Position numbers and translations under genes: made by a program
In this document: piece by piece, positions 14,343 to 32,000 of the stretch
How the letters are laid out: every line of letters starts with the position of its first letter
How positions within the stretch are numbered: position 1 is the stretch's first letter
Notes under the pieces: generated by a model
Databases searched by the model: none
Seen by the model: only the letters and a program-made list of their open reading frames with translations
What the model was told of the DNA's origin: nothing
Origin: Halomicronema hongdechloris C2206
GTDB taxonomy: Bacteria > Cyanobacteriota > Cyanobacteriia > Phormidesmidales > Phormidesmidaceae
Length of the DNA: 32,000 nucleotides
NCBI RefSeq assembly: GCF_002075285.3
Contig: NZ_CP021983.2
Location: 2,490,001-2,522,000 of the forward strand
Reading direction: 5' to 3'

Positions 14343-14380
14343 TCGGAATATTAGGTGATGATCGGAATATTAGGTGATGA
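14343..14380. repeat. Perfect 19-bp tandem duplication (tcggaatattaggtgatga x2) overlapping the annotated KAP start
   Basis: Read directly: 14343-14361 is identical to 14362-14380. Confidence 0.95.
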
Positions 14381-16437
14381 GAGGAGTTTATAGGCCTTCT
14401 AGCAAAATATTTGAATTATTTCACGAGTTTTCGAGTATGTTAGCAAACATATTAAGCCATAAATTTAGAGGACCTATCACAATGGAAGACGGTCATGCGA
14501 AGCCCAAAATGTCAGCTAATAGTCACGTAAGAGAATATCTAAATTATTACTGTAGACTACCATGTGAGCCTAGATTTGCCGTTTTATTAAAGGGAGAATG
14601 GGGCTCTGGGAAAACATGGTTCATAAATAGATATGAGGAGATCCTAAAAGAAAGAAACCAAAAATGCCTGTATATCAGTCTTTATGGAATCAGCAATGTT
14701 GCCGAAATAGATGATAAATTTTTCCAGTTGCTGTATCCCATAAGGTCATCAAAAGGAATGGCAATTACTGGGATTATTGTTAAGGGATTATTGAAAGGGG
14801 CATTAAAAATCGATTTAAATAGTGATGGTAAGGATGATGCTACTTGGAATATTCAAATTCCAGAAATCAATTTTCCTGAGCGCTTAAAGGATATCAATCA
14901 AAGTATTTTGATATTTGATGACCTAGAACGTTGCAGTATAGAGCTCGGAAATTTACTAGGATATATAAACTATTTTGTAGAGCATCAAGGCTTGAAGGTA
15001 ATTCTTATTGCAAATGAAGATGAGCTAAGCAAAAACGAAAGCTACAAAGCCATAAAAGAAAAATTGATTGGCAAGACATTTAGTATATCTCCTGATTTTA
15101 GAGATGCGATGGAAGATTTTGTATCTCAAGTCCATAATGAAGACGCTAAAAATTTCTTACTTAAAAACTCCGAAAAAATAAGAGATCTATACAACAGCAA
15201 AAATTATCAAAATCTAAGAATCCTGAATCAGATTATTTTGGAATTTGAAAGGATTTTTGAAAAATTACCAGGCGAGGTAAAGAGCCGATCGGAGATCCTA
15301 GAAAATATATTAGAAAACTTTGTAAATTTTTCCACCGAAATTAGTTGTGGTTCGATACATCCCAAAGATTTGAATAAGCTATGGGAAGAGTATAATCATA
15401 TGCTAATAGGTGATAAAAGTTCTTCCAATCCAAATGGAAAAGAAAATGAGGAGATTTTTTACCGAAGAATTTTTGGGAGACATGACTTTTTTAATAGTCC
15501 ATTCCCAAATCTATATTGGTGGGAGGTACTCTTTGATAAGGGAGTTATAGACGAACAGGAATTAAAGCAATCAATACTAAGTAGCAAGTATTTTCAAGAT
15601 GAAAATACGCCTGACTGGACAAAATTGTGGCATTACTCAGAACTTGACGATGACAAATTCAATGATTTGATCAAGAAAGTTGAGGTTGACTATGGCAACA
15701 GAATATTCACCGATATTGGCATCATAAAACATATAGTTGGACTTTTCCTAAAGTTCTCTGATGCCGGAGTTTATCCTAGATCCAAACAGGATATCCTAGA
15801 AGATTCTAAAAGGTATATTGACGATCTTAGGAGTAAAAATAAATTAGAGCCTTTCCCTAAATCTTCAACTTTACCTGAAACGATTGGTCATATCATAGGC
15901 GGTTACCAAAGCCTTGAATTTATGGGGAAAGAATTTGAGGAATTCGAGGAATTTTGCAATCATCTCAATGAAATTAGGCAGTTGGTTACGATTGATAAAA
16001 TCCGTGAGGACGCTCTATGCCTGCTTGATATGATGAAAAATGACGTGAATAAGCTGTATAGGATTCTTTGCTTCGACAGTTCTCCTGCTCAAGATGAGTC
16101 AGAGCCAAGGTATCATGAGATCCCGATATTAAACTATATACCTTCTGCTGATTTTATGGCAAGCATACTTACCATGAAACCTGAGGAGCAACGGAATGTC
16201 TTCTCAATAATTTCTGAAAGATATAAGTATCAGAACATTAATAAAAAATTGATTGAAGAATTGGAATGGCTAAAATCAGTCCAGACTTTATTGTTAGAGG
16301 AATCTTCCTGTAGGCAAGGTAAGCTTAGTGAATTTCGTTTAAAAGAATTCAACACGTATTATCTGAAAGAAACAATTGCTAGGCTTGCCACTGGGAAAGA
16401 AACTTCTGGAGAAGAGAAACTAGGCGAGGTCCAATAG
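14374..16437 (+). CDS. KAP-family P-loop NTPase
   Basis: Walker A GEWGSGKT (14593-16), Walker B-like ILIFDDLERC, a long alpha-helical C-terminal region, and a very AT-rich sequence. The start is uncertain: the ATG at 14482 has AGAGGA nine nt upstream and may be the real start. Confidence 0.8.
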   Translation: MMRGVYRPSSKIFELFHEFSSMLANILSHKFRGPITMEDGHAKPKMSANSHVREYLNYYCRLPCEPRFAVLLKGEWGSGKTWFINRYEEILKERNQKCLYISLYGISNVAEIDDKFFQLLYPIRSSKGMAITGIIVKGLLKGALKIDLNSDGKDDATWNIQIPEINFPERLKDINQSILIFDDLERCSIELGNLLGYINYFVEHQGLKVILIANEDELSKNESYKAIKEKLIGKTFSISPDFRDAMEDFVSQVHNEDAKNFLLKNSEKIRDLYNSKNYQNLRILNQIILEFERIFEKLPGEVKSRSEILENILENFVNFSTEISCGSIHPKDLNKLWEEYNHMLIGDKSSSNPNGKENEEIFYRRIFGRHDFFNSPFPNLYWWEVLFDKGVIDEQELKQSILSSKYFQDENTPDWTKLWHYSELDDDKFNDLIKKVEVDYGNRIFTDIGIIKHIVGLFLKFSDAGVYPRSKQDILEDSKRYIDDLRSKNKLEPFPKSSTLPETIGHIIGGYQSLEFMGKEFEEFEEFCNHLNEIRQLVTIDKIREDALCLLDMMKNDVNKLYRILCFDSSPAQDESEPRYHEIPILNYIPSADFMASILTMKPEEQRNVFSIISERYKYQNINKKLIEELEWLKSVQTLLLEESSCRQGKLSEFRLKEFNTYYLKETIARLATGKETSGEEKLGEVQ

Positions 16438-16606: not shown

Positions 16607-19600
16607 ATGGTTGAGGAGACACCGCTCCTACAAATTCATCTGTTGGGCGATTTTTGCATCTTCGATCAAAGCGGTACCGTCATTGACATCCGGTTGCGAT
16701 CGCAAGAGCTGCTCGCCTATCTGATTCTGCACCGCCATACCCCTCAGCCCCGGCGACGGGTTGCGGCAGTCCTCTGGCCCGATGACCTAGAGAGTCAGGC
16801 CCGTACTCATCTTAGGAAAGAGCTCCATTACTTGCGACGAACCTTCCCCATCATTGAGCAGATCGTCGTGATCACCCCTCGGACCCTCCACTGGCATCCT
16901 CAAGGGGCCTGCCAGGTGGACCTGGAAATCTTTGAAACCACTTTAGCCACCGCAGAGGACTCCAAAGGCCATGGGGCTTGCCAAAAGCTGGAGTCTGCCC
17001 TCGGAGTGTATCGAGATGACCTATGGCCAGACTGTGAGGCCGACTGGCTGTATCCAGAGCGAGAACGGCTGAGACAGCGCCATGTTCGCGCCCTGGCCCA
17101 GACGACTCGACGGCTGCAAGAGCTGGGGGAAACGGCGAAAGCGATTACCCTGGGCCGACAGTGGTTACAGGCTGCCCCCCTAGACGAAGGCGGCTATCAA
17201 ACGCTGATGGCGCTCTATGGAGAGATGGACGATCGCGCCACGGCCCTACAGCTCTACCACCAATGCATGACCGCGTTGCAAACCGAACTGGGGGTATCAC
17301 CGAGCGCGACGACGGCTGAGCTCTATCAGCGGTTGCTGGTGGCTGCAGAGGTCAGCGACGATTCCCTGCCTTCGTCAGCTCTGCTCGCTGGAGAATCCAT
17401 TCCCGTGCCCGCCCCCCTGCCCCTAGCGCCCCCCACTGCCACTAAAGCGTTGGTCGGCCGCGACGAGCTGTTCCCCGCCTTAGAACAATGGCTGTTACCC
17501 ACTGCCATAAGGTCTGCCCCCCTCTTGCTCCTAACGGGAGAACCAGGCATTGGCAAGACCCGTTTGCTGGAGGCGCTGGCTGAGAGTGCAAGCCACCATC
17601 ATTTTCAGCCGTGCTGGGGTCGGGCCTTTGCTGCCGAGCAGCTGCGTTCCTACGGCGTCTGGATCGATCTGCTGCGGACAGTCTCTGACACTGAGCTTTT
17701 TTCGAGTCTCAGAGAGGTGTCAACCGACCTGCGCGATGCCCCGTTGGAGCGACTGCCTAACCGTGGACAGTTATTGGACGCCATTGTTCAGGGCCTAAGG
17801 GCCGTGACCCAGTCGGAGCAAGCCTTACTGCTGCTCTTTGACGATATTCACTGGTTAGATGAAGCCTCCACCACGCTGTTACACTATGTGTTTCGCTCCC
17901 TTGGCCACGGACCATTGCGCATCGCCTGTGCGGCTCGTGGTCAGGAGTTACAGGACAATCCAGCCATATCCAGCCTGCTAAAGTCCCTGCGACGGGCAAA
18001 TCGGTTACAGGAAGTGGCGGTGCCGCCGCTTTCCCCCGAGGCAGTTTGGACACTGGTGCAACCATTGCCCAATCCCGATCCGGACCATCCCCTCAACCCC
18101 CAGCAGATCTATGCGGACAGCGGCGGGAATCCGCTCTTTGCCCTGGAAGCGGCCCGTGCCCTGACTCAAGCCACCAGTACCCTGCCGGATCTGATTGACG
18201 ATCGCCTGCAACGATTAGATCAAGCCGCTCGGGATCTATTGCCCTGGGCCGCCGCCTTGGGTCGCCGATTTGACCCAGACACCTTGGCATCGGCGGCGGG
18301 CTATCTCCCCATGCAGTTTCTCACCGCGATCGAGCAGCTAGAAGCGCAGCAGATCGTTTGCCCAGTGCCCGCAAGTCAGGCCGATGGCGACGGCTACTAC
18401 GACTTTGCCCACGATTTGGTGCGCCAGGTGGCCTACGACCGTCTATCGCAGCCGCGACGGCGACTCATCCACCGACAGCTCGCCAAAATCCTCAATGCTC
18501 AAACCGTAGATGATGACCTGGCGAGCCAGGTGGCTTACCATGCCGAGCTTGCCGATGATCATGCCCTCGCCGCCCAGGCTGCTGCCGCCGCCGCCGCCCG
18601 TAGTTTGCGCTTATTTGCCTACAAAGACGTGATTCAACTCGTGGCTCAGGGCCTACATCACTGTCAATTTCTGTCCAGGGGTGAGCGCCTCTGCCTATCG
18701 GCCCAGCTCCTGCGAACTCGGGTACTGGCGGGCATGGCCACCGAAGAAAGCGCTATCGTCGAATCTCAGCTACAGCAGCTCACCGCCGAGTTGGAAGGCC
18801 TATCGATGCCTGAAGCCGAGCTCATCGTTCAGGAGGCGTTAAACTTTTTGCACTACGATCAGGGCAACCTCGCAACCGTGCATCAGCAGAGCCTCAGGGC
18901 CTTGGATGCCTTACCCCCCAGCCCTCAACTCCAGGCCCAGAGCCTGGCGGCCAATGGCTGCTGCTTAGCCGAAATTGAGCGGGACATGGATCGGGCCGAA
19001 GCCGTCCTGCTGGAAGCCCAGGCCATCGCAGAACGATTGGGGTTGAAGCTGATTGATGTTGCCACCGGGTTAGGCTGTATCGAGCGGTATCGAGGCCACT
19101 ACGGACAGGCCCGCACCTACTTGCAGCAGGCCTTACAGCTTGCCCAGAATCAGCGGCATTTTGTGGCCCAGGGATATGCCTTGAGCCAATTGGCCATGAC
19201 CGGCTGGGACTGGCATCAACCAGACATCGTCGCTGTTCAGGCATTAGTGCAGTTGGCCAAGCGGCTCCCCCAGGGCAGTGAGGGCAGTTTTGCCGCCGCC
19301 TTGATGGCGTTGAGTGCCTATGCCGATGATCCGGATGCGACCGAGGCGTTGGATCTAAAGCTGCATCAGTTAAATCAGCTCGACGCCCAGCGCAAGCTAG
19401 TCTTTATTGCCAGCCACGCCTGTGAAATCGCCCTGGCCCATCATCAGCAAGCAGCCGCCCGACGCTATGGGACCATGGCCCAGCAAGCGGCTCAGCAGGT
19501 GGGGCATCCTAACGATCTGGTAATGACAGGTGCCCTGCAGGTGCTAACTGCCAATCAAGCCGCTGAGCAACAGGCTTCGTGGCAGCAGCTTCAGCACAAC

Positions 19601-19741
19601 CCCGATATCAATGATTGTCGCTGCAGCGCTCGGGCTCGGTCATTATATGAGCAGGCACAACGGGTAATGCAGCCGTCCATGGCCAAGCGGCATACGCTTC
19701 AAGATAGCTGCCGACGGAGTGCGGTGAACCAAACGATGTGA
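16607..19741 (+). CDS. SARP/BTAD-family transcriptional regulator with AAA/STAND ATPase and C-terminal TPR-like region (AfsR-like)
   Basis: The N-terminal part is LLGDFCIFDQSGTVIDIRLRSQELLAYLIL...RRRVAAVLWPD. The BTAD-like segment is YQTLMALYGEMDDRATALQLYHQCMTALQTELGVSPS. Walker A is GEPGIGKT (17537-60) and Walker B is LLLFDDIHWLD. Confidence 0.8.
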   Translation: MVEETPLLQIHLLGDFCIFDQSGTVIDIRLRSQELLAYLILHRHTPQPRRRVAAVLWPDDLESQARTHLRKELHYLRRTFPIIEQIVVITPRTLHWHPQGACQVDLEIFETTLATAEDSKGHGACQKLESALGVYRDDLWPDCEADWLYPERERLRQRHVRALAQTTRRLQELGETAKAITLGRQWLQAAPLDEGGYQTLMALYGEMDDRATALQLYHQCMTALQTELGVSPSATTAELYQRLLVAAEVSDDSLPSSALLAGESIPVPAPLPLAPPTATKALVGRDELFPALEQWLLPTAIRSAPLLLLTGEPGIGKTRLLEALAESASHHHFQPCWGRAFAAEQLRSYGVWIDLLRTVSDTELFSSLREVSTDLRDAPLERLPNRGQLLDAIVQGLRAVTQSEQALLLLFDDIHWLDEASTTLLHYVFRSLGHGPLRIACAARGQELQDNPAISSLLKSLRRANRLQEVAVPPLSPEAVWTLVQPLPNPDPDHPLNPQQIYADSGGNPLFALEAARALTQATSTLPDLIDDRLQRLDQAARDLLPWAAALGRRFDPDTLASAAGYLPMQFLTAIEQLEAQQIVCPVPASQADGDGYYDFAHDLVRQVAYDRLSQPRRRLIHRQLAKILNAQTVDDDLASQVAYHAELADDHALAAQAAAAAAARSLRLFAYKDVIQLVAQGLHHCQFLSRGERLCLSAQLLRTRVLAGMATEESAIVESQLQQLTAELEGLSMPEAELIVQEALNFLHYDQGNLATVHQQSLRALDALPPSPQLQAQSLAANGCCLAEIERDMDRAEAVLLEAQAIAERLGLKLIDVATGLGCIERYRGHYGQARTYLQQALQLAQNQRHFVAQGYALSQLAMTGWDWHQPDIVAVQALVQLAKRLPQGSEGSFAAALMALSAYADDPDATEALDLKLHQLNQLDAQRKLVFIASHACEIALAHHQQAAARRYGTMAQQAAQQVGHPNDLVMTGALQVLTANQAAEQQASWQQLQHNPDINDCRCSARARSLYEQAQRVMQPSMAKRHTLQDSCRRSAVNQTM

Positions 19742-22983: not shown

Positions 22984-24273
22984 CCCTTAGTGGCGCAGAG
23001 AAGTGCTGAAAGTGCTGCTGTATAAGGACTCTCAAATAGGACAAGAGGGTATTTCATGAGAAGCTGAAGTTCCCCAACTACCGCTAACCTCATGGAAACG
23101 CCTATCGTCAACTGGAAGACCAATTACGTCAATGGGTCGAGCCCAAAGACCAACGCCATCTGCAGGGCTTCACTGAAATGCTGGCGGCCATCTTGCAATC
23201 TGGCCAGGCCTGCTTGGGGAAATGGATTCCTTACTTGGATCACCGCGGGTGTAGCGCCCGGGCTCACTTGGAACGTGTAAGCTATTTTCTCCGCAATGAG
23301 CAGATCACTGCGGAACGGGTCTACCGGCCCTTGTTACGCCATGTGCTGCCCGCGTTTGCTGGGGAAGCTGTCCTGTTGACCTTGGATACGAGTCTGCTGT
23401 GGAATCACTGGTGCTTGATAGAGGTGTGCTTGGCTTGGGGCGGGCGGTCGCTCACGCTGACCCAACAGGTAATTGAACATCGCAGTGCCACCATCCGTTT
23501 TGAACAATACCACGGGGTGCTGGAGTGCGCCCGTCGAGCCTTACCGCCAGGGAGTCAGGTGACGCTTTTGGCCGACCGAGGCTTTGAACATGGAGACTTG
23601 ATCCGTTGGCTTAATCGCAATCACTGGAACTGGTCGATTCGCGTCAAGTCAGACTTGCTGGTCACCCTGGCCCAGGGGCGAACTCAACCCGTCGAGGCCC
23701 TCTGTCCACCGCCGAATCAGGCGTATCTCTTCCCCAACGTGCAGGTGCTTGAAGATATCAAGGCGCATCTGGCGACGGCCAACGTGCCGGACGCTCAAGA
23801 CACCTGGGCGGTGTTGTCGAACCAACCTCCCTCGCTACAGACCTTCGCGCTCTATGGCCAGCGGTTCGGTGGGATTGAGCCCCATTTTAAGGATTACAAG
23901 TCAGCAGCATTTGACCTCTTGGAGACGGGACTGCGGGAAGCCGAGATGCTGACCCGTTTAGTCATGCTGTTGGACGCCGCCTCGCTCATTGCCCTGATAC
24001 TTGGCCTGATGCTTGTCCACGCAAAACAGCGGGCTCGGATTGACTGGCATGGGGAGCGGGGGTTGAGTTTTCTGCAACTTGGTCTGCGTGAGTTGGCTCG
24101 GCTGTGCTACCAGCGATTACCTCTGCCCAAACTTCGGGCTTTGACCAAAGGCCATCCATCTCCGGCCTGTGCCTCACGCTGTAAACGTGAGGCCTTAGAT
24201 TGTCGCGTTGAGTTCTCTAAGGTCGTTGTGTTCTCATCTTGAGACTGTTCTGAGTTTTCTGCACCACTAAGGG
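22984..24273 (+). mobile_element. Complete IS4/IS701-like insertion sequence (~1.29 kb) with terminal inverted repeats
   Basis: IRL is CCCTTAGTGGCGCAGAGAA (22984-23002). IRR, as the reverse complement of 24255-24273, is CCCTTAGTGGTGCAGAAAA (17/19 identical). The element encloses a single DDE transposase gene. I could not identify a convincing target-site duplication. Confidence 0.8.
23178..24242 (+). CDS. DDE transposase (IS4/IS701-like); the 5' end is apparently frameshifted
   Basis: Motifs are LLTLDTS, LLADRGFEHGDLIRWL and YGQRFGGIEPHFKDYK (Y-R-E-K signature). The same frame stays open upstream to 23088 and encodes AYRQLEDQLRQWVEPKDQRHLQGFTE, a typical N-terminus for this family. The only nearby ATG (23092) is one base out of frame. 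Confidence 0.8.
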   Translation: MLAAILQSGQACLGKWIPYLDHRGCSARAHLERVSYFLRNEQITAERVYRPLLRHVLPAFAGEAVLLTLDTSLLWNHWCLIEVCLAWGGRSLTLTQQVIEHRSATIRFEQYHGVLECARRALPPGSQVTLLADRGFEHGDLIRWLNRNHWNWSIRVKSDLLVTLAQGRTQPVEALCPPPNQAYLFPNVQVLEDIKAHLATANVPDAQDTWAVLSNQPPSLQTFALYGQRFGGIEPHFKDYKSAAFDLLETGLREAEMLTRLVMLLDAASLIALILGLMLVHAKQRARIDWHGERGLSFLQLGLRELARLCYQRLPLPKLRALTKGHPSPACASRCKREALDCRVEFSKVVVFSS

Positions 24274-24577
24274 TTTTGACCTCAAGCAGACCCAGCCTAA
24301 CCTAAAATGGCCACACCGTTACTGTCCAGTGGTTCATCGCTTGTCATTGCCCGGATTCTGGGTTGCTGTTGAGCGCCACCCTGAAGCTGTCGTTGAGACG
24401 ACGGTTTAGATAAGGCAGCACCCGTTTCGATCGCATTACTGCTGAGCGGCATTTTGTGCGATCGGGCAGTGGTTGGCAGCAAAGACTTTATATAAAATCT
24501 TCGAGTGATTTATGAGAATAATGGAGCTCTGAACGCTTGTCAAAAGACATAGGCTATTAGTATCTCTTGACATAGAG

Positions 24578-24593
24578 TGTGATCTGAATCACA
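24578..24593. promoter_or_regulatory. Perfect CRP-family palindrome TGTGA-N6-TCACA
   Basis: TGTGATCTGAATCACA was read directly, and TTGACA lies just upstream at 24567-24572. The site sits in the ~1-kb AT-rich non-coding stretch upstream of the JAB gene. Confidence 0.4.
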
Positions 24594-25334
24594 TATTCAT
24601 CGAGTAAAAGCAATGAATGTGGATATTTAAAGGTTTTTTGAACAAAAGGCTGAGCTAGTGATCTCAAATGTTACCCTCTAGGGTAATAGCGCATCTTGAT
24701 TCTTTGGTAAATAATTGAGGCGTGCAAGAGTGAACCAGCAAGCCAACTGACATCGAACTGACTGGTTAGCATCTATCAGTATTTCAGCATCTACCAAAAC
24801 TATTCGGGCTCTTTGGACTAAACTATGCTGACTGCATTACTAAAAACCTCGAATCCCTTATGTAGCAATACTTGTAGGTCTTAGAAACTCAAACAGAGTC
24901 ACGAATGCCGCAAAATCCTGCGCCGTAAGGATTCTAGCGATTTTCAGGGCTGTATTGCATACCCTAGCCGGAAGACCCACTATTCGTGAAGCAAAAGCCA
25001 GGTTCCTTAGATGACTTTGAAGTGGAAACTTGAATAGTAAACCTCCGAGTTTCAACTTGTGGGCATTACCTTAGTATGCTGAATACGGTTAATGGCTTTT
25101 TCAGGCTCAGCATAAAAATTTTTGGCGATATGATTGCGAAGATTTCGCGGAAAGAGAATTTTGGCGAATAAATGCCTCACAAAGACTATCTTCCCTAATA
25201 AATCTTGCTTAGTAATACGTACAAGAATTTTGGAATCTCGAACAGTATGTGTAGTTCTGAAGAAGCACATAATTAGTGATAAAATTACGCAATCCAATGG
25301 GTGTACGGTATCTTTTTTGATTAGGTACGATTTT

Positions 25335-26282
25335 ATGGCTAGCTATAGCAAGCAGGGATCTAAATTTAAAGCCCTAGTCTATGAAGGTGAATTACAACGT
25401 ATTTCTGGTTGGGTTGAGGAATATCCGAATTTAGAAACGGGTGGAGATCTATTTGGATTCTGGACACATTCTGGATTCCCAGTTGTTCAATTTGTATTGG
25501 GTCCTGGCTCAAAAAGTAGACATAACCCAACCAGTTTTTACCAAGATAAAGATTACTTGGTTGAAAGTGGTAGTCTTCTCAGGAGTAAGCATGGCTTACA
25601 ACATATTGGAGAGTGGCATTCTCATCATCAACTTGGATTGGCTCAACCTAGTCAAGGAGATGAAAATACAGTTTTTAGAGCATTAGAAAAATACAAATTT
25701 CCCAAGTTTTTACTTTTCATTGCGAATTTAAGACCTAACTCAGGAAGTCGTTGCCAAAGAAGCAAATGGACGGTCAATGTAGGGAGCTTTTTATTCACCC
25801 GATCTATACCTAAGTATCAGGTTGGCCAATGGGTAGTTTTACCAGAAAATAGTCCAATTCGGTCAACTTTACATCAGAGCTGGCCTCAAAGTTCATCCTT
25901 TGAAAAAACTTGCCTCTCAAATAGTTGGAAGGTTGACCAAACCTCACTGGAAGCTGAAATCCTGGAGCCAACTCAACCAATTGAAATCGCTGAATATCTG
26001 TGGTACTCGAAACCAGAGGGACAAAATTTGCTGAAGGAAATTGATTCCGACCTAAAACAAGTCTTTAAAGACTGCCAAATGTTTCGAACAGTCACAGGAA
26101 GTATTTACTTTACTTTCAAATATGGTCTGGATTACTGGCGAGTTAACTTACCTAATAACTTTCCTGATTCATCACCAACATTACAAGTTAACGAGGGGGA
26201 ACCAATATCGATTGAAGAGTATTCTAGCCAAACAAACTTAATAAATGATTTGAAAATATACTTAAAAATTCGAATGAAATAA
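25335..26282 (+). CDS. JAB/MPN (JAMM) metalloprotease with C-terminal E2/UEV/RWD-like extension
   Basis: The preferred start is the ATG at 25335 (MASYSKQG...), because the upstream part of track ORF 25134 is low-complexity. The JAMM motif is ETGGDLFGFW ... GEWHSHHQLGLAQPSQGD (25617-25661). The C-terminal SIYFTFKYGLDYWRVNLPNNFPDSSPTLQV parallels the flap region of the next gene. Confidence 0.8.
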   Translation: MASYSKQGSKFKALVYEGELQRISGWVEEYPNLETGGDLFGFWTHSGFPVVQFVLGPGSKSRHNPTSFYQDKDYLVESGSLLRSKHGLQHIGEWHSHHQLGLAQPSQGDENTVFRALEKYKFPKFLLFIANLRPNSGSRCQRSKWTVNVGSFLFTRSIPKYQVGQWVVLPENSPIRSTLHQSWPQSSSFEKTCLSNSWKVDQTSLEAEILEPTQPIEIAEYLWYSKPEGQNLLKEIDSDLKQVFKDCQMFRTVTGSIYFTFKYGLDYWRVNLPNNFPDSSPTLQVNEGEPISIEEYSSQTNLINDLKIYLKIRMK

Positions 26283-26297
26283 AAGGTTGATAAAGTT

Positions 26298-26762
26298 ATG
26301 AATTGGAGTAAGATCCAGCAAAAACGTTTACTGATAGAGAAGGAAATTCTCAAGAAGTACTTCCCTGCATTTAAGTGGGTTAATCCTACTGATTCCAGTA
26401 ATACAAGAATAGAAGGCAACGTATGCACTAATTCTATGAAACTGTACACTCTCAGAGTGTATATACCTTCAGATTTTCCTAATTCACGTCCTGATATGGT
26501 TGTAACCTTGCCATATCCTCTTGAAGGATGTTCAGGAAATGACTTGAAAGATTATGGTGCGAGTTCAAGTATGCACACGCTGGATCCAAGAGATGGCTAT
26601 GTTCAAATTTGTCACTATAAAGATTGGACAGACAACCTAACCGTTTACTTGGTTGTCTTAAAAGGAAGAATTTGGCTTGAAGCATATGAAGCACACAAAC
26701 GTACTGGACAACCTTTGGACCACTTCTTACCTCATATGCTTGGTGGTGCAGAAAACTCCTGA
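26298..26762 (+). CDS. Stand-alone prokaryotic E2-like (UBC-fold) protein
   Basis: The N-terminal helix is QQKRLLIEKEILKKYFP. The beta-meander plus flap is KLYTLRVYIPSDFPNSRPDMVV. An HPN-like MHTL has His93 (26574-76), and the candidate catalytic Cys105 lies in VQICHYKDW (26610-12). The gene starts 15 nt after the JAB stop. Confidence 0.7.
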   Translation: MNWSKIQQKRLLIEKEILKKYFPAFKWVNPTDSSNTRIEGNVCTNSMKLYTLRVYIPSDFPNSRPDMVVTLPYPLEGCSGNDLKDYGASSSMHTLDPRDGYVQICHYKDWTDNLTVYLVVLKGRIWLEAYEAHKRTGQPLDHFLPHMLGGAENS

Positions 26763-26790
26763 AACCCTTATGGATAAAGGATTCTCATTA

Positions 26791-26906
26791 AGACCGTCAT
26801 TTTTGGCTTTCTCAAAAAATTGGACGAGGGCAGTAGGTTTCAGCCGATGTTTTGGCTGTTCAAGCCATCCACTGTGAGACTCAAAAAAGTTTTCTGCACC
26901 ACTGAG
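26791..26906 (+). mobile_element. Truncated 3' end, including the right inverted repeat, of a second diverged copy of the IS at 22984-24273
   Basis: gttttctgcaccactgag (26889-26906) matches gttttctgcaccactaag (24254-24271) at 17/18 positions. TGAGACT, including the transposase stop codon, sits at the same offset in both copies (26875-81 vs 24240-46). The upstream frame ...AVGFSRCFGCSS..* loosely parallels ...RVEFSKVVVFSS*. Confidence 0.6.
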
Positions 26907-27031
26907 CCTCATATGTAATGAACAAATATATACTTGCAATGGAAAATTGAAACCATAGCATATCAGTTTTTGAACAAATCTATCCTGCCTCTACGTAATT
27001 ATTTCAGTGAACATTAAGGAGGACAAATCCA

Positions 27032-27223
27032 ATGACAGATTCTCAAAATGTGCAGGAACATCTAGAGATTATGACTGAAGAAGGGGCTGCGCCACCCAAC
27101 CAAGAACTCGTTTTCGACCCAACAACAGGCCAGCTAGTTGTAAAGAGCATAAGTGATCCTAAGCCTAATCCTGATGCTGTGACTGCGACCCAAATTGCTG
27201 AAGATGGTTTCTTCCAGGAGTAG
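27032..27223 (+). CDS. Small (63 aa) acidic, proline-rich protein of unknown function located 5 nt upstream of the E1-like gene
   Basis: A strong SD, AAGGAGG (27016-22), lies 9 nt upstream of the ATG. The stop is 5 nt before the E1-like ATG. The sequence is MTDSQNVQEHLEIMTEEGAAPPNQELVFDPTTGQLVVKSISDPKPNPDAVTATQIAEDGFFQE. I recognise no family. Confidence 0.6.
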   Translation: MTDSQNVQEHLEIMTEEGAAPPNQELVFDPTTGQLVVKSISDPKPNPDAVTATQIAEDGFFQE

Positions 27224-27228
27224 TAGTT

Positions 27229-28530
27229 ATGAATTCATATCTTGTCTACATGCACCAGGAGCAAGTCCAAGCGATCTACCAAAACTTTATTGCTTCTGGA
27301 ATAAACACAATTCGTGGAATTGCGTTTGAGTTTGATGACGGTGATGTTTTTCATATTTATACATCAGAACCCAAAACTCAGATCTCTGGTTATCCCTGTG
27401 CTTCCCTCATTCAATTTCTAGATCGATTACCTACCAACGAAGCAGGTCTAGCGATGGCTAAACAGCTTCGTAACACAATGCAAAATAATGGTGTCAATTC
27501 TTCTAGACATATATTGATTATTCTATTCTCAATAGAGGATGGTCAGTTAAAGCATCATGTTTTCGCGAGTAGAGCTGAAGGCGAATTCCAAGAAGGAGTT
27601 ATGAAATTTCTTCCTGGGAGATCCGAGCTTTATTCTCGCAGTAAAGGAATCTTGGAAACTTCAATCTTAGAGAACTGCAAAGTTGGGATTGTTGGCCTGG
27701 GTAGTGGTGGTTCTAGTATTGCAGTAGAACTGGCTAAAGCAGGAATTGGTAATTTTGTGTTGATTGACTATGATCGACTGGAATTAGCCAACATTGCTAG
27801 GCATGTTTGTGGGACAGGTGATCTTGGTCGTTATAAAACTAAGGCGGTCAAAGATGCACTATATGGCAAGAATCCTCACATTCAGGTTGACAGCGCCGAG
27901 CTCGATATTAACGAAAATTTAGAGCAAACCAAAATACTGCTTAAAGACTGCAATTTAATTATTGCAGCTACTGACAACGATCGCAGTCGTTTCAATTTAA
28001 ATAGTATTTCCTTGGAATATAGAATTCCTACTATTTTTGGTAGAGCATTAACTCGTGCTATTGGAGGTGATGTTCTAAGAGTCCGCCCTCATCAAGGACC
28101 TTGTTTAAGATGTATTTTTACCAAAGATTTTCTAGCAACCCGTAAACAGGAAATATCCACGTCTACCCAGGCTAGGAAAGATACACCAGCCTATGTCTCA
28201 GATGAAGAGGTTAACGCAACTGTTCAAGTTGGATTGTCTTCTGATATTGTGCCCATCTCAAACATGGTTGTGAAACTGGCATTAGTAGAGCTGTCTAAAG
28301 GTCGAGCCAGTGGCATTGCTTCCCTAGAAGAAGATTTGATTGCGAACTTTTACATTTGGGCTAATCGGCGTGAGCAAACCTATGCTGAATGGCCAAAGAT
28401 GGAATATGGTTCAAGAACACCCTCTATCCTGCGGTGGTACGGTGCAAAGTGGGAGCGCAACGCAACTTGCCCCGCCTGTAACGAAGACCATGAACTACTG
28501 GATGAGGAAGACAATATTTTTGCTAGTTAA
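27229..28530 (+). CDS. ThiF/MoeB/E1-like adenylating enzyme with an unassigned ~145-aa N-terminal domain
   Basis: The Rossmann motif is KVGIVGLGSGGSSIAVELAKAGIGNFVLIDYDRLELANIARH (GxGxxG at 27694-27711), followed by ATDNDRSR. Two CxxC pairs, GPCLRC (28102-13) and CPAC (28468-79), resemble the Zn site of MoeB/ThiF/MccB. Confidence 0.8.
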   Translation: MNSYLVYMHQEQVQAIYQNFIASGINTIRGIAFEFDDGDVFHIYTSEPKTQISGYPCASLIQFLDRLPTNEAGLAMAKQLRNTMQNNGVNSSRHILIILFSIEDGQLKHHVFASRAEGEFQEGVMKFLPGRSELYSRSKGILETSILENCKVGIVGLGSGGSSIAVELAKAGIGNFVLIDYDRLELANIARHVCGTGDLGRYKTKAVKDALYGKNPHIQVDSAELDINENLEQTKILLKDCNLIIAATDNDRSRFNLNSISLEYRIPTIFGRALTRAIGGDVLRVRPHQGPCLRCIFTKDFLATRKQEISTSTQARKDTPAYVSDEEVNATVQVGLSSDIVPISNMVVKLALVELSKGRASGIASLEEDLIANFYIWANRREQTYAEWPKMEYGSRTPSILRWYGAKWERNATCPACNEDHELLDEEDNIFAS

Positions 28531-28683
28531 GAAGATAAACACTATTTTCTCGGCTCTTCTGGATATCAGGTGATAAGCGTGGCAAGGGTTTCAGCCTTGT
28601 TAATGCTATTTTTTGTATCCAATTGACCATTTTCAACCATAAACCCAAAAGAGCCATTTTCTCGATGTAAAACACTTAAAAAC

Positions 28684-31600
28684 ATGAATGACTTTGAAGC
28701 AGCTCAGTTACTACAGCAAGGTATTCAGCATTTCCGGGTTGGTCAATTGGATCTAGCCGCCGATTCCTTTCGTGAAGCCTTAAGGATATCCAAAGTTCTT
28801 GGAAACCGCGCTGTTGAGGGAGTAGCTCTCACTGTTCTGGGCAATGTCTACCTTAACCAAAACAAATACCAGCAAGCGATTGAAGCTCAGGAACAAGCCC
28901 TAGCGCTCTCCAAAGAGACTGGTAACTATGCCGGACAGGGAGCAGCCCTAGGTGGATTAGGATTGGCTTACCTTAAGCAAGGTCAAACTCAACGAGGTGC
29001 TGAGCATCTTGAAGACGCATTACCCATCTTCAAACAAATTGGCGATCGCGCGGGAGAATGTCAGGTGTTGAGTGGGTTGGGAAATGCCTATACCCAATCA
29101 GAAGAATATGCAACCGCAGTGAAGTACCTTCAGCAAGCACTAACAGCTGCTAGGGAAATCGGCAATCCTGTCGGGGAGGCCACAGCTTTGGGTGGCTTAG
29201 GAGAGGTTTACCTTAAGCAAGGTCAATATCAAAAAGCCATTGAGTCTTTGAAGCCGGTGTTACCCATCTTCCAGGAAATGGGCAATCGCCCATGGCAAGG
29301 AGAAACCCATATTAACCTGGCAAAGGCCTACGACAATTTGCAGCAGTACACAGAGGCAATTACTCATTATGAACAGGCCTTCAACATTTTTCAAGATTTG
29401 GGCGATCGCAATAAAGTCGGCAATCTACTGCTTAATCTGGGCATTGATCAGGGGCAACTGGGTCAATATTCTGAGTCTGCCTCCTCCTATCAAAGAGCTT
29501 TATCAACTTTCCAGGATGACGGTGATCAAGCGGGAGAAGGAAAGGCTCTGCTGAATTTGGGCATTACCTGCTCTTATCTGGCGCAATATTCAGAAGGAAT
29601 CCGTTTCCTGAGTCAAGCCCTTAGCATTTTCCAGCATCTGGGTGATCTGAGGAGTCAAGGAATCGTTTTAGAGCGTCTGAGCTATACCCACATGGGATCA
29701 GGCCAGTTCACAGAAGCCATCAGCTTTTTCCAGCAAGGTTTAGATATTGTCCGAATGAGTTGCGATCGCCTGACAGAGGGCACAATCCTAAGCAATTTAG
29801 GCTATGCATTGACGCAAACAGGGGAATATCAACAAGCTCTCGAACATCTCAACCAAGCTTTAAGTATCGCTCATGAACTCGAAAACTCTATTCTCAAAGG
29901 TCAAGCTTTATCATTTTTAGGAAATTTATATCTTGATCAGGGCAAATATCAAGAAGCCATTGAAACTCAGAGATATGCTTTATCAATTCTAAGGAAGACT
30001 AACAACGCTTTGGGACAAGCCGCAGCTTTGGGTTGCATAGGACTTGCCCACTTGCAACAAAGTCAATATCAAGAAGGCATTAAGCATCTTGAGGAGGCGT
30101 TGCCAATCTTCAAACAAACTAGATACCGATTTGGAGAATGCCAAACTTTAAATGGTTTAGGTAATGCCTATACTCAGTTACAAGACTATCCAAGCGCCAT
30201 TGATTATTTCCAGCAAGCACTGAAAATTGCGAAGGAAATTGGTAATTGTGTAGGAGAAGCAACAGCATTAAGTGGATTAGGTGATGCTTATCTACAACAT
30301 GGTCAATATCAAGAAGCGATCGATGCTTTGCAGTCAATAATACCGATTTTGCCAGAAATTGGCGATCGCCAGTTGGAGCAGACCATATATATTAATTTGG
30401 GCAAAGTCTATACTGAGCTTAAACAATTTAAGGCAGCAATCCAATCCTTTGAGAAAAGCTTAAAAATCACTCGAGAACTTGGTGCTCGGATAGAAGAACT
30501 GCTTGCCTTAAGTAGCTTAAGCACTCTAAATTTTGAAGCTAAGAGATTTGAGAGCACAATAAAATATTCTAGGCAGATTTTAACTCTTTTAGACAAGAAG
30601 AGCGATACTGAATTAAACCTCGAAAATGAAGTGAAACTCAACATTTTGTCAGAGGCAAAATACAATATCGGCACAGCTCATCTATATAAGCAAAAAGGCA
30701 TAAGAACTGACAATTTAGAGTTAGCCATTCGCTATCTTAAAGAAGCCTTACAAGGATATTCTAGAGACAACCTTTCCTCTGAGTGGGCAAAGGCTCATAA
30801 TAATCTTTCCATTGCATATTTGGATAGAATTCGAGGTGGTAAAGCAGAAAATATAGAGAATTCAATTAAGCACTCAAAAAACACCTTAGAAGTTTATACA
30901 ATAGAGGAGTACCCTGAAGAATGGGCTAGAACTCAACTTAATTTAGGTCATGCTTACTTGGCAAGAATACTTGGTGAGAAAGTAGCTAATCTTCAAGAAT
31001 CAATCGGCTTCTGTCAGCGAGCTTTATCTGTTTTTACTCAGAAGGAATCTCCTGAGTATTGGGCGAAATCACAAAGTAACTTGGGAGCTGCCTATGCTAC
31101 TCTTGCTAAGCAAAGTAGTCTTAAGGTGGGTTTCCTAGATTATGTGAAGCAGGGTAAACCTAAAGTCACCTCAGAAAACTTTTCCAATTTTAGTACTAGC
31201 AACTATGAAGAAGTAAAGCATAAATTTTTAGAAAAAGCAATTGAAAGCTTTACGCTTGCTTTGCAATTTCTAGATGAGACAAACTCTCCCTTTGATTGGG
31301 CACAGGTTCAGATGAATTTAGGAGCTGCTTTCTTAGATAAGTCTGAAATCATAGAATTGAAAGAGAAAGATAGATTGATAGATCTAGCCATTAACTCTTT
31401 TGACTCTGCCCTAAGGGTCTTTACTCCTATTAAGACTCCTGAGAAGTGGGCAGAAGTGAACAATCACATGGCAGTTGCATATATCAAGAGACTGAAAAGT
31501 GAAACAGGAGATAAGGCTGAGATTTTTAGTAATTCAGTTGTTCGTTTCCAAGATACGCTACAAATTTATACGCGCGAGGCTTTTCCTCAAAAATATGCAG

Positions 31601-32000
31601 AGGCCCAACACAATCTTGGACGAGCCTATAAGTATGCTGAGAACTACAGTGCGGCATACGATGCATTCTATGAAGTCATTGAAACCTTAGACTATCTGCG
31701 TAGTGAGATAAGTCCCAAATCAGGCATACAAGAAGACAAGCAGAAGCTGACGGAAGCATGGAACCATGTTTACCAGGAGATGGTGCAGCTCTGTTTGAAG
31801 CTTGATAAGCCTATAGAGGCAATTGAATATGTTGAACGGAGTAAAACCAAGAGTCTTGTTGAGCTTCTTACAAATAAAGAAAATTACTACGAACATGAAA
31901 CATCTCTAAGTCGAATCCGTGATGTTGGAAGGATTTCCTTTGCTGATATTCAAGACCTGATTGACGATCAAACTGCGATCATCGAATGGTATATCGCAGA
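28684..32000 (+). CDS. Giant TPR-repeat protein, 3'-partial (over 1105 codons with no stop before the window end); probable TPR-CHAT protease
   Basis: This ORF is not in the supplied track. I translated it by hand from ATG 28684 (MNDFEAAQLLQQGIQHF...) to the last base and found no stop. It contains about 14 canonical 40-aa TPR units, then W-containing repeats (P.EWA..Q.NLG.AY), then EYVERSKTKSLVELL...DQTAIIEWYIA. That order matches the usual lead-in to a CHAT domain in cyanobacterial proteins. The catalytic part would lie beyond the window. Confidence 0.75.
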   Translation, partial: MNDFEAAQLLQQGIQHFRVGQLDLAADSFREALRISKVLGNRAVEGVALTVLGNVYLNQNKYQQAIEAQEQALALSKETGNYAGQGAALGGLGLAYLKQGQTQRGAEHLEDALPIFKQIGDRAGECQVLSGLGNAYTQSEEYATAVKYLQQALTAAREIGNPVGEATALGGLGEVYLKQGQYQKAIESLKPVLPIFQEMGNRPWQGETHINLAKAYDNLQQYTEAITHYEQAFNIFQDLGDRNKVGNLLLNLGIDQGQLGQYSESASSYQRALSTFQDDGDQAGEGKALLNLGITCSYLAQYSEGIRFLSQALSIFQHLGDLRSQGIVLERLSYTHMGSGQFTEAISFFQQGLDIVRMSCDRLTEGTILSNLGYALTQTGEYQQALEHLNQALSIAHELENSILKGQALSFLGNLYLDQGKYQEAIETQRYALSILRKTNNALGQAAALGCIGLAHLQQSQYQEGIKHLEEALPIFKQTRYRFGECQTLNGLGNAYTQLQDYPSAIDYFQQALKIAKEIGNCVGEATALSGLGDAYLQHGQYQEAIDALQSIIPILPEIGDRQLEQTIYINLGKVYTELKQFKAAIQSFEKSLKITRELGARIEELLALSSLSTLNFEAKRFESTIKYSRQILTLLDKKSDTELNLENEVKLNILSEAKYNIGTAHLYKQKGIRTDNLELAIRYLKEALQGYSRDNLSSEWAKAHNNLSIAYLDRIRGGKAENIENSIKHSKNTLEVYTIEEYPEEWARTQLNLGHAYLARILGEKVANLQESIGFCQRALSVFTQKESPEYWAKSQSNLGAAYATLAKQSSLKVGFLDYVKQGKPKVTSENFSNFSTSNYEEVKHKFLEKAIESFTLALQFLDETNSPFDWAQVQMNLGAAFLDKSEIIELKEKDRLIDLAINSFDSALRVFTPIKTPEKWAEVNNHMAVAYIKRLKSETGDKAEIFSNSVVRFQDTLQIYTREAFPQKYAEAQHNLGRAYKYAENYSAAYDAFYEVIETLDYLRSEISPKSGIQEDKQKLTEAWNHVYQEMVQLCLKLDKPIEAIEYVERSKTKSLVELLTNKENYYEHETSLSRIRDVGRISFADIQDLIDDQTAIIEWYIA
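28825..30415 (+). repeat. Intragenic segmental duplication: two ~510-bp four-TPR blocks (28825-29335 and 29905-30415), offset by 1080 bp
   Basis: The first block reads ALTVLGNVYLNQNKYQQAIEAQEQALALSKETGN...LSGLGNAYTQSEEYATAVKYLQQALTAAREIGNPVGEATALGGLGEVYLKQGQYQKAIESL. The second reads ALSFLGNLYLDQGKYQEAIETQRYALSILRKTNN...LNGLGNAYTQLQDYPSAIDYFQQALKIAKEIGNCVGEATALSGLGDAYLQHGQYQEAIDAL. Confidence 0.8.

Follow-up and report, generated by a model that had tools for sequence, protein, structure and literature searches.

The stretch of DNA analysed here (hereafter the window) comprises 32,000 nucleotides from the cyanobacterium Halomicronema hongdechloris C2206 and ends in a run of genes that resembles a ubiquitin-like conjugation pathway. 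An earlier note, made from the letters alone, had described this run as five closely spaced genes on one strand, encoding a JAMM-type (JAB) peptidase, an E2-like protein, a product of 63 amino acids (aa), a ThiF/E1-like enzyme and a giant TPR protein of the kind that carries a caspase-like CHAT domain, and had proposed a conflict or defence module in which conjugation controls, or is read out by, the protease. Listing and translation of the open reading frames (ORFs) placed all five on the + strand as described: the JAB gene at 25335-26282 (315 aa; its ATG at 25335 agrees with the starts of homologues), the E2 gene at 26298-26762 (154 aa), the small ORF, here termed s63, at 27032-27223 (63 aa), the E1 gene at 27229-28530 (433 aa) and the TPR ORF at 28684-32000, which runs for 1105 codons and is still open at the window end. 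Our analysis confirms the observation made in that note and partly supports its interpretation.

Three enzymes and a conserved small protein

The E1 ORF matched the Pfam ThiF family (1.6e-34; 119.6 bits against a cut-off of 28.1) and the 'E1-E2' models that PADLOC provides for CBASS, the antiphage signalling system based on cyclic oligonucleotides (up to 4e-33). The protein consists of an N-terminal α/β domain (residues 1 to ~140), a ThiF adenylation domain (147-310), a Zn-type set of CxxC pairs and a flexible, acidic C-terminal tail ending in ...EEDNIFAS; the ThiF domain is single, and the N-terminal 140 residues have no similarity to ThiF. At E ≤ 1e-20, over 1,200 proteins came up in a homologue search with the E1, and the best 120 of those are 46-69% identical over most of their length. 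The two CxxC pairs that had been pointed out before are both invariant in the homologues, as are the G-L-G-S-G-G-S ATP loop and the R and D residues, and a Cys in 'RHxCG' is nearly so (80/91). Between the two CxxC pairs we found no conserved Cys that could represent a crossover-loop or CYS-domain cysteine. When the AlphaFold2 (AF2) model of a naturally fused E1 homologue was compared with known structures using Foldseek, Cap2 came first (1e-17, 430 columns) and BubCD second, followed by UBA5, Atg7, MoeB, ThiF and MccB; MccB and PaaA were also among the sequence or structure matches of the E1. The ORF at 27229-28530 thus encodes a ThiF-type E1 whose closest structural match is Cap2 of CBASS and to which GenBank and JGI give the name 'molybdopterin-synthase adenylyltransferase'. 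On weaker grounds, its N-terminal domain resembles the Cap2 linker and the N-terminal domain of Atg7. A degenerate JAB/MPN domain was considered for this region, as BubCD, a JAB-E1 protein, aligned over ~450 columns, and was not supported by hhalign against the JAB family, with a probability of only 0.2%. The tail of the E1 carries a motif of its own, [DE]-x-[IF]-F-[GA], in 32 of 91 E1s, mostly cyanobacterial (EEDNIFAS in the window, at 28489-28530). Its [IF]-F-[GA] part resembles the G-F-F end of s63 described below, and conceivable roles for the motif are those of a pseudo-substrate, a docking element or a site of self-conjugation.

For the E2 ORF, no Pfam, NCBIfam or PADLOC model, including UQ_con and Prok-E2, gave a match at E ≤ 1, so that its membership of the UBC family rests on fold and motifs. 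Its sequence is 100% identical to that of a protein recorded for H. hongdechloris C2206. The AF2 model (predicted local distance difference test, pLDDT, 91.3) has the element order H-E-E-E-E...H, and its top 50 Foldseek matches in the PDB were all E2 enzymes, ubiquitin- or SUMO-conjugating, with a probability of ~1 and template modelling (TM) scores of ~0.45-0.54. Among 76 distinct homologues, H93, W110, P61 and P65 are present in all 76 and C105 in 75. The prolines belong to a proline-rich flap (P57/P61/P65), and His93 sits in M-H-T-L, not in H-P-N. The UBC fold and the conserved His/Cys pair postulated in the earlier note were therefore both recovered, and from the model we assign 26298-26762 as a predicted stand-alone UBC-fold E2 with Cys105 as its putative catalytic residue.

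The JAB protein matched the PADLOC JAB model (2e-13) and, just under the cut-off, Pfam Prok-JAB (4.7e-5; 23.7 bits against 25), while the NCBIfam models Cap3 (17 bits against 200) and 6A-MBL cap2_3 (40-52 bits against 320) stayed far below theirs. The JAMM motif E...HxH...S..D is represented by E34, H95-S-H97, S106 and D109, which are kept in 26 of 27 homologues. This JAMM/MPN+ metallopeptidase domain occupies residues ~1-165 and is followed by a second domain (~166-315) that is conserved across phyla. Aligned with the E2 family profile using hhalign, the second domain matched over 57 columns (probability 70%, E 4e-5), spanning the β-meander and a 'P-x-d-F-P-x-S-x-P' flap, and Pfam gave a weak FANCL UBC-like match. 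Since the tail matches the E2 profile but lacks the cysteine, it is best described as an inactive, RWD/UEV-like E2 fold, in keeping with the E2/UEV-like tail suggested before. As judged from its sequence, the protein is a JAMM peptidase with an intact predicted active site and a C-terminal RWD/UEV-like, inactive UBC-like domain. Profile, fold and residue evidence together thus bear out an E1, E2 and JAMM conjugation module in which E1 and E2 are separate proteins.

When the E2 profile was used in a pattern scan across 185,579 species genomes, it picked out 27 loci in cyanobacteria, actinobacteria, α- and γ-proteobacteria, Binatia and Planctomycetota, and phmmer searches with the window proteins found JAB, E2, s63 and E1 together in nearly all of them, in one of three gene orders (JAB-E2-s63-E1, s63-E1-JAB-E2 or E1-JAB-E2-s63). 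At the Planctomycetota locus L025 no small gene was detected. The same four genes occur in 80 metagenome loci and on one contig of Chitinophagaceae (Bacteroidota) as well as on unassigned metagenome contigs, so that the ~110 loci inspected cover at least five phyla. When the E1s were clustered at ≥80% identity, 28 of the 51 clusters had all four genes, and most others lay on truncated contigs. The co-occurrence of five genes proposed earlier therefore holds for the four-gene core; the TPR-(CHAT) gene is absent beside most of its copies. Apart from this fifth gene, none of the refuting conditions named in the earlier note came true outright. Considering ORFs of at least 70 aa, we found no further conserved gene beside the core in 27 + 86 loci, and hence no β-grasp gene that travels with it; nor does the window contain a β-grasp Ubl (ubiquitin-like protein) ending in Gly-Gly, as had been noted. 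No relative was found among the viral contigs of IMG/VR, and three cassettes are on conjugative plasmids. We found no description of the family, or of an operon joining Septu with E1, E2 and JAB, in the searchable literature, whose coverage leaves an earlier mention possible. On the Acaryochloris marina plasmid pREB3 (L014, 9063-10444), JAB and E2 have no adjacent s63 or E1 within 10 kb; this cassette may be split or rearranged, with the E1 homologue P0113 possibly derived from it. In a Hormoscilla sp. (L004, 5834-7224 and 10666-12095), the E1 gene is broken up into ORFs of 128 and 320 aa, the STAND gene beside it has come apart into five or more fragments, and the module appears to be decaying in this metagenome-assembled genome (MAG) of a symbiont.

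The 63-aa ORF had been treated as a bystander of the enzymes. This view did not survive the comparison, for s63 is as conserved as the enzymes and occurs in the tandem and fused forms typical of Ubls. Its core consists of L-x-F-D-P-x-T-G-x-L (residues 26-35, extending to v-v), P-D at 47-48 (P-D-x-V) and A-x-[DE]-G-F-F. In the window the last of these elements ends in G59-F60-F61 and is followed by two variable residues (Gln-Glu). Of the 87 different units compared, 72 have GFF as their terminal motif, 12 have GFA and 3 have GYF; Gly or Ala mostly comes next, and conservation stops at the motif. The ORF ends 0-8 residues past the motif in 57 of the 87, in some cases exactly at GFF, and in 16 of the 87 s63 is fused in front of E1. 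A scan of 1.84 billion representative sequences added stand-alone forms of 50-99 aa, some again ending exactly in ...GFF, proteins with two copies in tandem, an s63-s63-E2 fusion (P0267), an s63-JAB fusion (P0297) and several s63-E1 fusions. In fusions s63 is always N-terminal, and cleavage would therefore free its C-terminus. The exclusively N-terminal fusions, the tandem copies, the sharp C-terminal motif and the company of E1, E2 and JAMM enzymes together make up the signature of a Ubl precursor.

In the AF2 model of a naturally occurring s63-E1 fusion, residues 3-18 of s63 make up a helix and residues 26-41 a β-hairpin, at a pLDDT of ~80-86, and both 'AEEGFF' and the C-terminal tail of the E1 itself fall below 50. 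On this model s63 appears to combine a folded body and a tail that is flexible; it is predicted to consist of helix and hairpin and not to be a β-grasp protein. It is unrelated to ubiquitin and seems to fill the ubiquitin slot; the 'missing Ubl' is most likely the 63-aa ORF itself, the most informative component of the locus. Large proteins of 750-1950 aa with 4-9 s63-like stretches (P0263, P0271, P0272, P0278 and P0284) proved to be Kelch/FG-GAP β-propellers and were discarded as spurious, because the FDPxTGxL hairpin resembles a propeller-blade motif. Such false positives, which come as repeated matches of sub-threshold appearance, would contaminate a naive census of the s63 family.

Variable neighbours and the genomic island

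Beyond the four genes, the neighbourhood varies between loci. In eight E1 clusters the core is followed by the Septu genes ptuA (PADLOC 1e-58 to 3e-70) and ptuB (HNH), which start 2-35 bp past the E1 stop or overlap E1 by 21-46 bp. Three loci have the order JAB-E2-s63-E1-PtuA-PtuB (L028:3545-5633, L030:9239-11372 and L032:9286-11312; one contig from Chitinophagaceae, Bacteroidota, and two from metagenomes), and such a six-gene operon is a Septu system with an E1/E2/JAB accessory arm. A ClpB-like double-AAA+ protein is encoded 3-330 bp downstream in six clusters (among L102-L113; e.g. L110:8984-11584 and L105:3652-6243), and a 552-aa FtsH-like AAA protease 20-21 bp downstream at three loci (e.g. 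L099:9382-11040 and L104:1598-3256). By analogy with Pup/Mpa, these two kinds of neighbour hint at a tag-and-unfold or tag-and-degrade link. At 18 cyanobacterial or cyanobacterium-like loci there is a helix-turn-helix (HTH)-NB-ARC STAND NTPase, once with WD40, which in 16 lies divergently on the opposite strand upstream of JAB. CHAT proteins were found at L019 (Nocardia, 5e-44), at L101 (a cyanobacterium-like metagenome contig, 9e-47) and weakly at L016 (a Pseudonocardiaceae MAG), and a CBASS cyclase fragment, a Cap4-like SAVED nuclease (1e-243) and a TIR protein on a Bradyrhizobium conjugative plasmid. At some loci, the surrounding island also holds genes for BrxC/D, TerB, a resolvase or VapE. 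From these settings, the module would be a mobile accessory of conflict or defence islands that stands beside varying effector or sensor genes. On that Bradyrhizobium plasmid (pBb323S2b of Bradyrhizobium barranii; L114, 5844-12214), a distant split JAB-E2-E1 set adjoins an N-terminally truncated ORF for a CD-NTase (cGAS/DncV-like nucleotidyltransferase), a Cap4-like SAVED endonuclease and a TIR protein; the arrangement may represent a type II CBASS in decay whose Cap2 is unfused.

The TPR ORF of the window matched Pfam TPR_12 (5.5e-106), as had been expected for it. Over its last 190 residues it shares 41% identity with residues 4-189 of P0225, a protein with a CHAT domain at 355-681, and the final 24 residues before the window end align with P0225 263-286. 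The same end is also collinear with P0221, P0195 and P0231; the CHAT E-values of P0225 and these three are 1e-46 to 5e-52, and all matches in this search with the C-terminus were 700 aa or shorter. No CHAT domain lies inside the window, and it would be located beyond base 32000. Since the end of the TPR protein is collinear with the region preceding CHAT in these homologues, the protein very probably continues into a CHAT (caspase-like) domain. Of the TPR-CHAT-type neighbour described in the earlier note, the TPR part was thus found directly and the CHAT part by collinearity, and its membership of a conserved unit was not upheld: no homologue of the TPR protein was found beside the 27 genome loci or the metagenome loci, and the gene is a variable neighbour outside the conserved core. 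In the window genome, functional coupling of the cassette with TPR-CHAT is possible but weakly supported, and the gene may be a regulated partner or a mere neighbour in the island.

The cassette lies in a low-GC island, with a GC content of 0.37-0.47 from ~24 kb to the window end as compared with 0.54-0.66 in most of the remaining window, in agreement with the AT-rich island reported before. Its upstream edge is marked by the DDE transposase gene of an insertion sequence (IS) element at 23178-24242 on the + strand (Pfam DDE_Tnp_1 2.7e-7, above the cut-off). A miniature inverted-repeat transposable element (MITE) of 168 bp, without assigned strand, lies inside the operon at 26739-26906; it has terminal inverted repeats and is flanked by a 9-bp target duplication, CCTCATATG, at 26730-26738 and 26907-26915. 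The MITE was inserted exactly at the original E2 stop codon and supplies the last seven codons of the E2 gene (LGGAENS). Excising it in silico restored an E2 end, ...PHM-stop, that matches the homologues, and its insertion explains why the gap between E2 and s63 measures 269 bp in the window as compared with 5-130 bp in the cyanobacterial genome loci. The right end of the MITE (26875-26906) shares 78% identity with the 32 nt that follow the transposase stop (24240-24271). Because of this identity, the MITE is probably a derivative of the IS family of the transposase at 23178-24242; a search of the window for the corresponding left end of the IS, at ≤3 mismatches, gave nothing. The island had been called IS-flanked. 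This applies to its upstream side, the one visible in the window, through the transposase and the related MITE within the operon. The low-GC island beside an IS element and the defence neighbours at homologous loci agree with the accessory or defence-like context that had been proposed.

Between the transposase and the cassette, the ~1 kb upstream of JAB (24272-25334) contains no recognisable gene, at a place where a divergent HTH-NB-ARC STAND gene is found in most cyanobacterial relatives. The minus-strand ORFs at 24858-25055 and 25052-25297 gave no Pfam match and show no similarity to the HTH-NB-ARC STAND family, and tblastn and hidden Markov model searches upstream of the window JAB detected no gene of this family, intact or decayed. 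Between E1 and the TPR gene, a terminator-like hairpin with a T-run is present on the + strand at 28580-28602. It is the sole site of this kind in 24200-29200, with one found as against 4.1 expected in shuffles, so that its presence does not exceed chance, and its position alone is a weak hint, from sequence, that the four-gene unit and the TPR gene may be transcribed separately. A second low-GC patch of the window (GC 0.33-0.39) holds a KAP-family P-loop NTPase gene at 14374-16437, which matches the PADLOC candidate defence gene PDC-S49 (1.5e-224), followed at 16607-19741 by a gene for a 1044-aa BTAD + AAA_16 protein (SARP/AfsR-type STAND). With these two genes, the wider neighbourhood looks like a defence or conflict region.

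Proposed conjugation mechanism and alternative readings

Bacterial operons with E1, E2 and JAMM genes are viewed both as ancestors of ubiquitination and as antiviral devices. To our knowledge, a β-grasp Ubl is used in the characterised Bil and Bub cases and the CD-NTase itself in CBASS, and there is no characterised case with anything else. The reading that we favour, and that we believe somewhat more readily than we doubt it, is that the four genes of the locus encode a module for ubiquitin-like conjugation whose mini-substrate is not a β-grasp protein, a split relative of Cap2/Cap3 that follows the four-part logic of BilABCD. In this module, as we infer from the sequences, s63 would be the moiety that is activated by the E1 and carried by the E2, in the Ubl slot, and the JAB enzyme would presumably mature s63 and remove its conjugates.

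The folds, catalytic residues, co-occurrence and architectures are shown by the results above, and the conjugation mechanism that we infer from them would run in four steps. The JAMM peptidase would first trim the residues past Gly-Phe-Phe or, elsewhere, a tandem copy or the fused enzyme. There are precedents for such cuts: in the Ubl-E2 fusion BubAB, the JAB domain of BubCD cleaves immediately behind the C-terminus of the Ubl (PMC11601596), and Cap3 cuts precisely after the C-terminus of the CD-NTase (bioRxiv 10.1101/2022.03.31.486616). In a second step, the folded N-terminal two-thirds of s63 would dock on the N-terminal domain of the E1, and its flexible aromatic end would enter the adenylation site and be adenylated; Cap2 likewise adenylates the disordered tail of a non-Ubl protein (bioRxiv 10.1101/2022.03.31.486616). 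The acyl group would then move to Cys105 of the E2. This transfer may be direct, because the E1 lacks a crossover-loop cysteine, and the E1 cysteine of Cap2 is dispensable in vitro (bioRxiv 10.1101/2022.03.31.486616). Finally, s63 would be ligated to amino groups of target proteins, and the JAMM enzyme would reverse the modification.

Several observations weigh against this mechanism. s63 ends in a bulky Phe-Phe instead of Gly-Gly, which is unusual for the adenylation pocket of an E1, and it is predicted not to be a β-grasp protein. Processing must be assumed for the window protein, in which Gln-Glu follows GFF. Five E1 clusters have JAB, E2 and E1 without a detectable s63, the link to TPR-CHAT rests on 3-4 loci, and of the 39 clusters whose flanks could be used, 18 have none of the partners named above, so that coupling to effectors is not universal. 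In addition, the confident AF2 packing of s63 on E1 would fit a stable subunit equally well, and the N-terminus of the Bradyrhizobium E1 seems to keep a degenerate s63-like stretch despite the presence of a CD-NTase, which fits a structural role.

The last two points lead to the alternative that survives best, which we consider unlikely though worth serious attention, namely that s63 acts non-covalently, as a subunit or regulator of the E1 or of a complex of E1, E2 and JAB. It might, for example, serve to recruit the E2 or as a gating element, with its aromatic end as a docking peptide, and the true substrate would then be the E1 tail, a partner protein or, where present, the CD-NTase. Besides the high confidence with which the s63 part is folded in the model of the fused protein and the persistence of the s63-like stretch in the CBASS-linked Bradyrhizobium E1, such a role would account for the fusion of s63 to any of the three enzymes, as expected of a subunit of one complex, and for tandem s63, which could serve a dimeric E1. 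The E1 tail motif in 32/91 proteins suggests a shared docking site, and UBA5, which uses C-terminal linear motifs for docking, is among the structural matches. However, no other component has a conserved C-terminus that is fit to be the substrate: among PtuA, PtuB and the ClpB-like, FtsH-like, STAND and CHAT proteins we found none that could serve the E1 in place of s63. Furthermore, the conservation of s63 stops exactly at GFF, where several ORFs end, as is typical of a C-terminus that reacts or is processed; every fusion has s63 at its N-terminal end, and the JAMM peptidase is always present.

We regard it as improbable that all five genes form one unit in which conjugation controls, or is read out by, the downstream TPR-CHAT protease, as had been proposed in the earlier note. 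The shared strand, the gap of 153 bp and the common low-GC island are consistent with such a unit, CHAT proteins are encoded just downstream of the cassette at L019, L101 and, weakly, L016, and the FtsH ternary systems provide a precedent for Ubl conjugation combined with caspase-like effectors (PMC7159879). Yet at the great majority of the ~110 loci neither a CHAT nor a TPR gene adjoins the cassette, no orthology is detectable between the N-terminal parts of the CHAT proteins from the window, L019 and L101, the terminator-like hairpin separates E1 from the TPR gene, and the CHAT domain itself lies beyond the window. TPR-CHAT genes are also numerous in filamentous cyanobacteria, which makes a chance adjacency plausible.

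A pathway for a ribosomally synthesised and post-translationally modified peptide (RiPP) of the microcin C type, in which the ThiF-like enzyme would adenylate the C-terminus of s63 as MccB does on MccA, has very little to recommend it. It would explain why the gene of a small peptide directly precedes that of a ThiF-like enzyme which has a Zn tetracysteine site and an additional domain at its N-terminus, and why MccB and PaaA are among the E1 matches, but a JAMM peptidase and a UBC-fold E2 whose Cys is invariant always go with the peptide gene, the surroundings hold no conserved genes for export, immunity or tailoring, the conserved part of s63 is a unit of ~40 residues and not a short core peptide, and Cap2 and BubCD outrank MccB as structural matches. 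Ordinary sulfur-carrier metabolism, which the GenBank and JGI names of the E1 and its NCBIfam MoeB and ThiF matches would suggest, is hardly credible, since these equivalog scores are far under threshold (e.g. ThiF 93 bits against 275), no MoaD/ThiS β-grasp partner or rhodanese domain is present, and the E1 is obligatorily linked with E2 and JAMM in a mobile-island context.

If s63 is indeed conjugated, it would be a third kind of E1-dependent modifier, the E1 pocket would accept an aromatic C-terminus, and the four genes would offer a compact and readily testable system. More tentatively, and with more doubt than conviction, we propose that s63 represents a new class of modifier, a ~40-residue non-β-grasp 'mini-ubiquitin' with a Gly-Phe-Phe end that is matured by a JAMM enzyme from tandem or enzyme-fused precursors, activated by a Cap2-like E1 and carried by a canonical-looking UBC E2, and that it serves at least five phyla as a portable tagging arm which feeds or gates varied executioners. 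These would be the Septu nuclease, ClpB- and FtsH-like unfoldases, STAND NTPases and CHAT proteases. E1-E2 chemistry would then be independent of the β-grasp fold, and the variable neighbours, CBASS included, would show how a single conjugation module is put to new use in the control of immune effectors that have no relation to one another.

Comparison with known systems

Iyer et al. (2006) defined several families of bacterial E1/E2/JAB systems: 6a, an E2-E1-JAB fusion with a metallo-β-lactamase (MBL); 6b, Cap2/Cap3 of CBASS; 6c and 6d, Bil; and 6e, Bub (PMC1779556). The present family fails the defining features of each of them. In contrast to the triple fusion and MBL gene of 6A-MBL, the genes are separate here and no MBL is present, and the NCBIfam cap2_3 model matches the JAB only partially and far below its cut-off. 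A likeness exists to the FtsH ternary conflict systems of multicellular bacteria, in which caspase-like effectors and AAA+ proteases are coupled to prokaryotic E1, E2 and JAB (Kaur et al. 2020, PMC7159879). Their further components, namely a fusion of a β-grasp Ubl with E2 and EAD1, a RING E3 and vWA-MoxR, were not seen here.

With Bil, the module shares the four parts (modifier, E2, JAMM and E1), the single operon and the occurrence in defence islands (PMC11601596, PMC11601603). However, BilA is a β-grasp Ubl of 1-3 domains with a C-terminal Gly, whereas s63 is predicted to be a helix and hairpin with a Gly-Phe-Phe end, and the E1 described here has one adenylation domain and a non-ThiF N-terminal domain instead of the IAD-AAD-CYS architecture. 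As in Bub, the modifier can be fused N-terminally to a pathway enzyme, from which JAB would release it, and tandem modifier domains occur; BubCD is also the second-best structural match of the E1. Bub uses Ser/Tyr oxyesters and a DUF6527 serine protease, whereas here the E2 Cys is kept in 75/76 homologues and there is no extra conserved gene.

In pupylation, which involves PafA, Dop and Mpa, Pup is a modifier of ~60 residues, not a β-grasp protein and partly disordered, that is ligated through a side-chain carboxylate by glutamine-synthetase-like enzymes. s63 resembles it as a small non-β-grasp modifier, and the cassettes directly before ClpB- or FtsH-like AAA+ genes recall the same tag-plus-unfoldase logic. 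The enzymes differ, being E1, E2 and JAMM proteins here, and no sequence relation is known.

The relation to CBASS needs both a distinction and a qualification. No CD-NTase and no nucleotide-activated effector is present among the scanned ORFs of the window, and the locus is hence not CBASS, as the earlier note had concluded; its E1 and JAB are nevertheless closest to the Cap2/Cap3 lineage. Cap2 is an E2-E1 fusion whose E2 domain reportedly lacks the His, Trp and Pro-rich flap (bioRxiv 10.1101/2022.03.31.486616), whereas here E2 and E1 are separate ORFs, the E2 keeps these features and the E1 has no crossover-loop Cys. Compared with Cap3, the JAB carries an extra RWD-like domain, and a dedicated 63-aa protein stands in the substrate slot. 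On the side of likeness, the E1 is structurally closest to Cap2 and matches the CBASS 'E1-E2' models, the JAB matches the Cap3 and cap2_3 models below their cut-offs, and the presumed substrate, s63, is a non-β-grasp protein with a flexible C-terminal tail. Moreover, the module is an accessory beside effector genes, and a distant member adjoins a CD-NTase fragment and a Cap4-like nuclease. By analogy with these systems, the module could behave like the portable arm formed by Cap2 and Cap3 or, alternatively, like a Bil-type, self-sufficient four-gene system.

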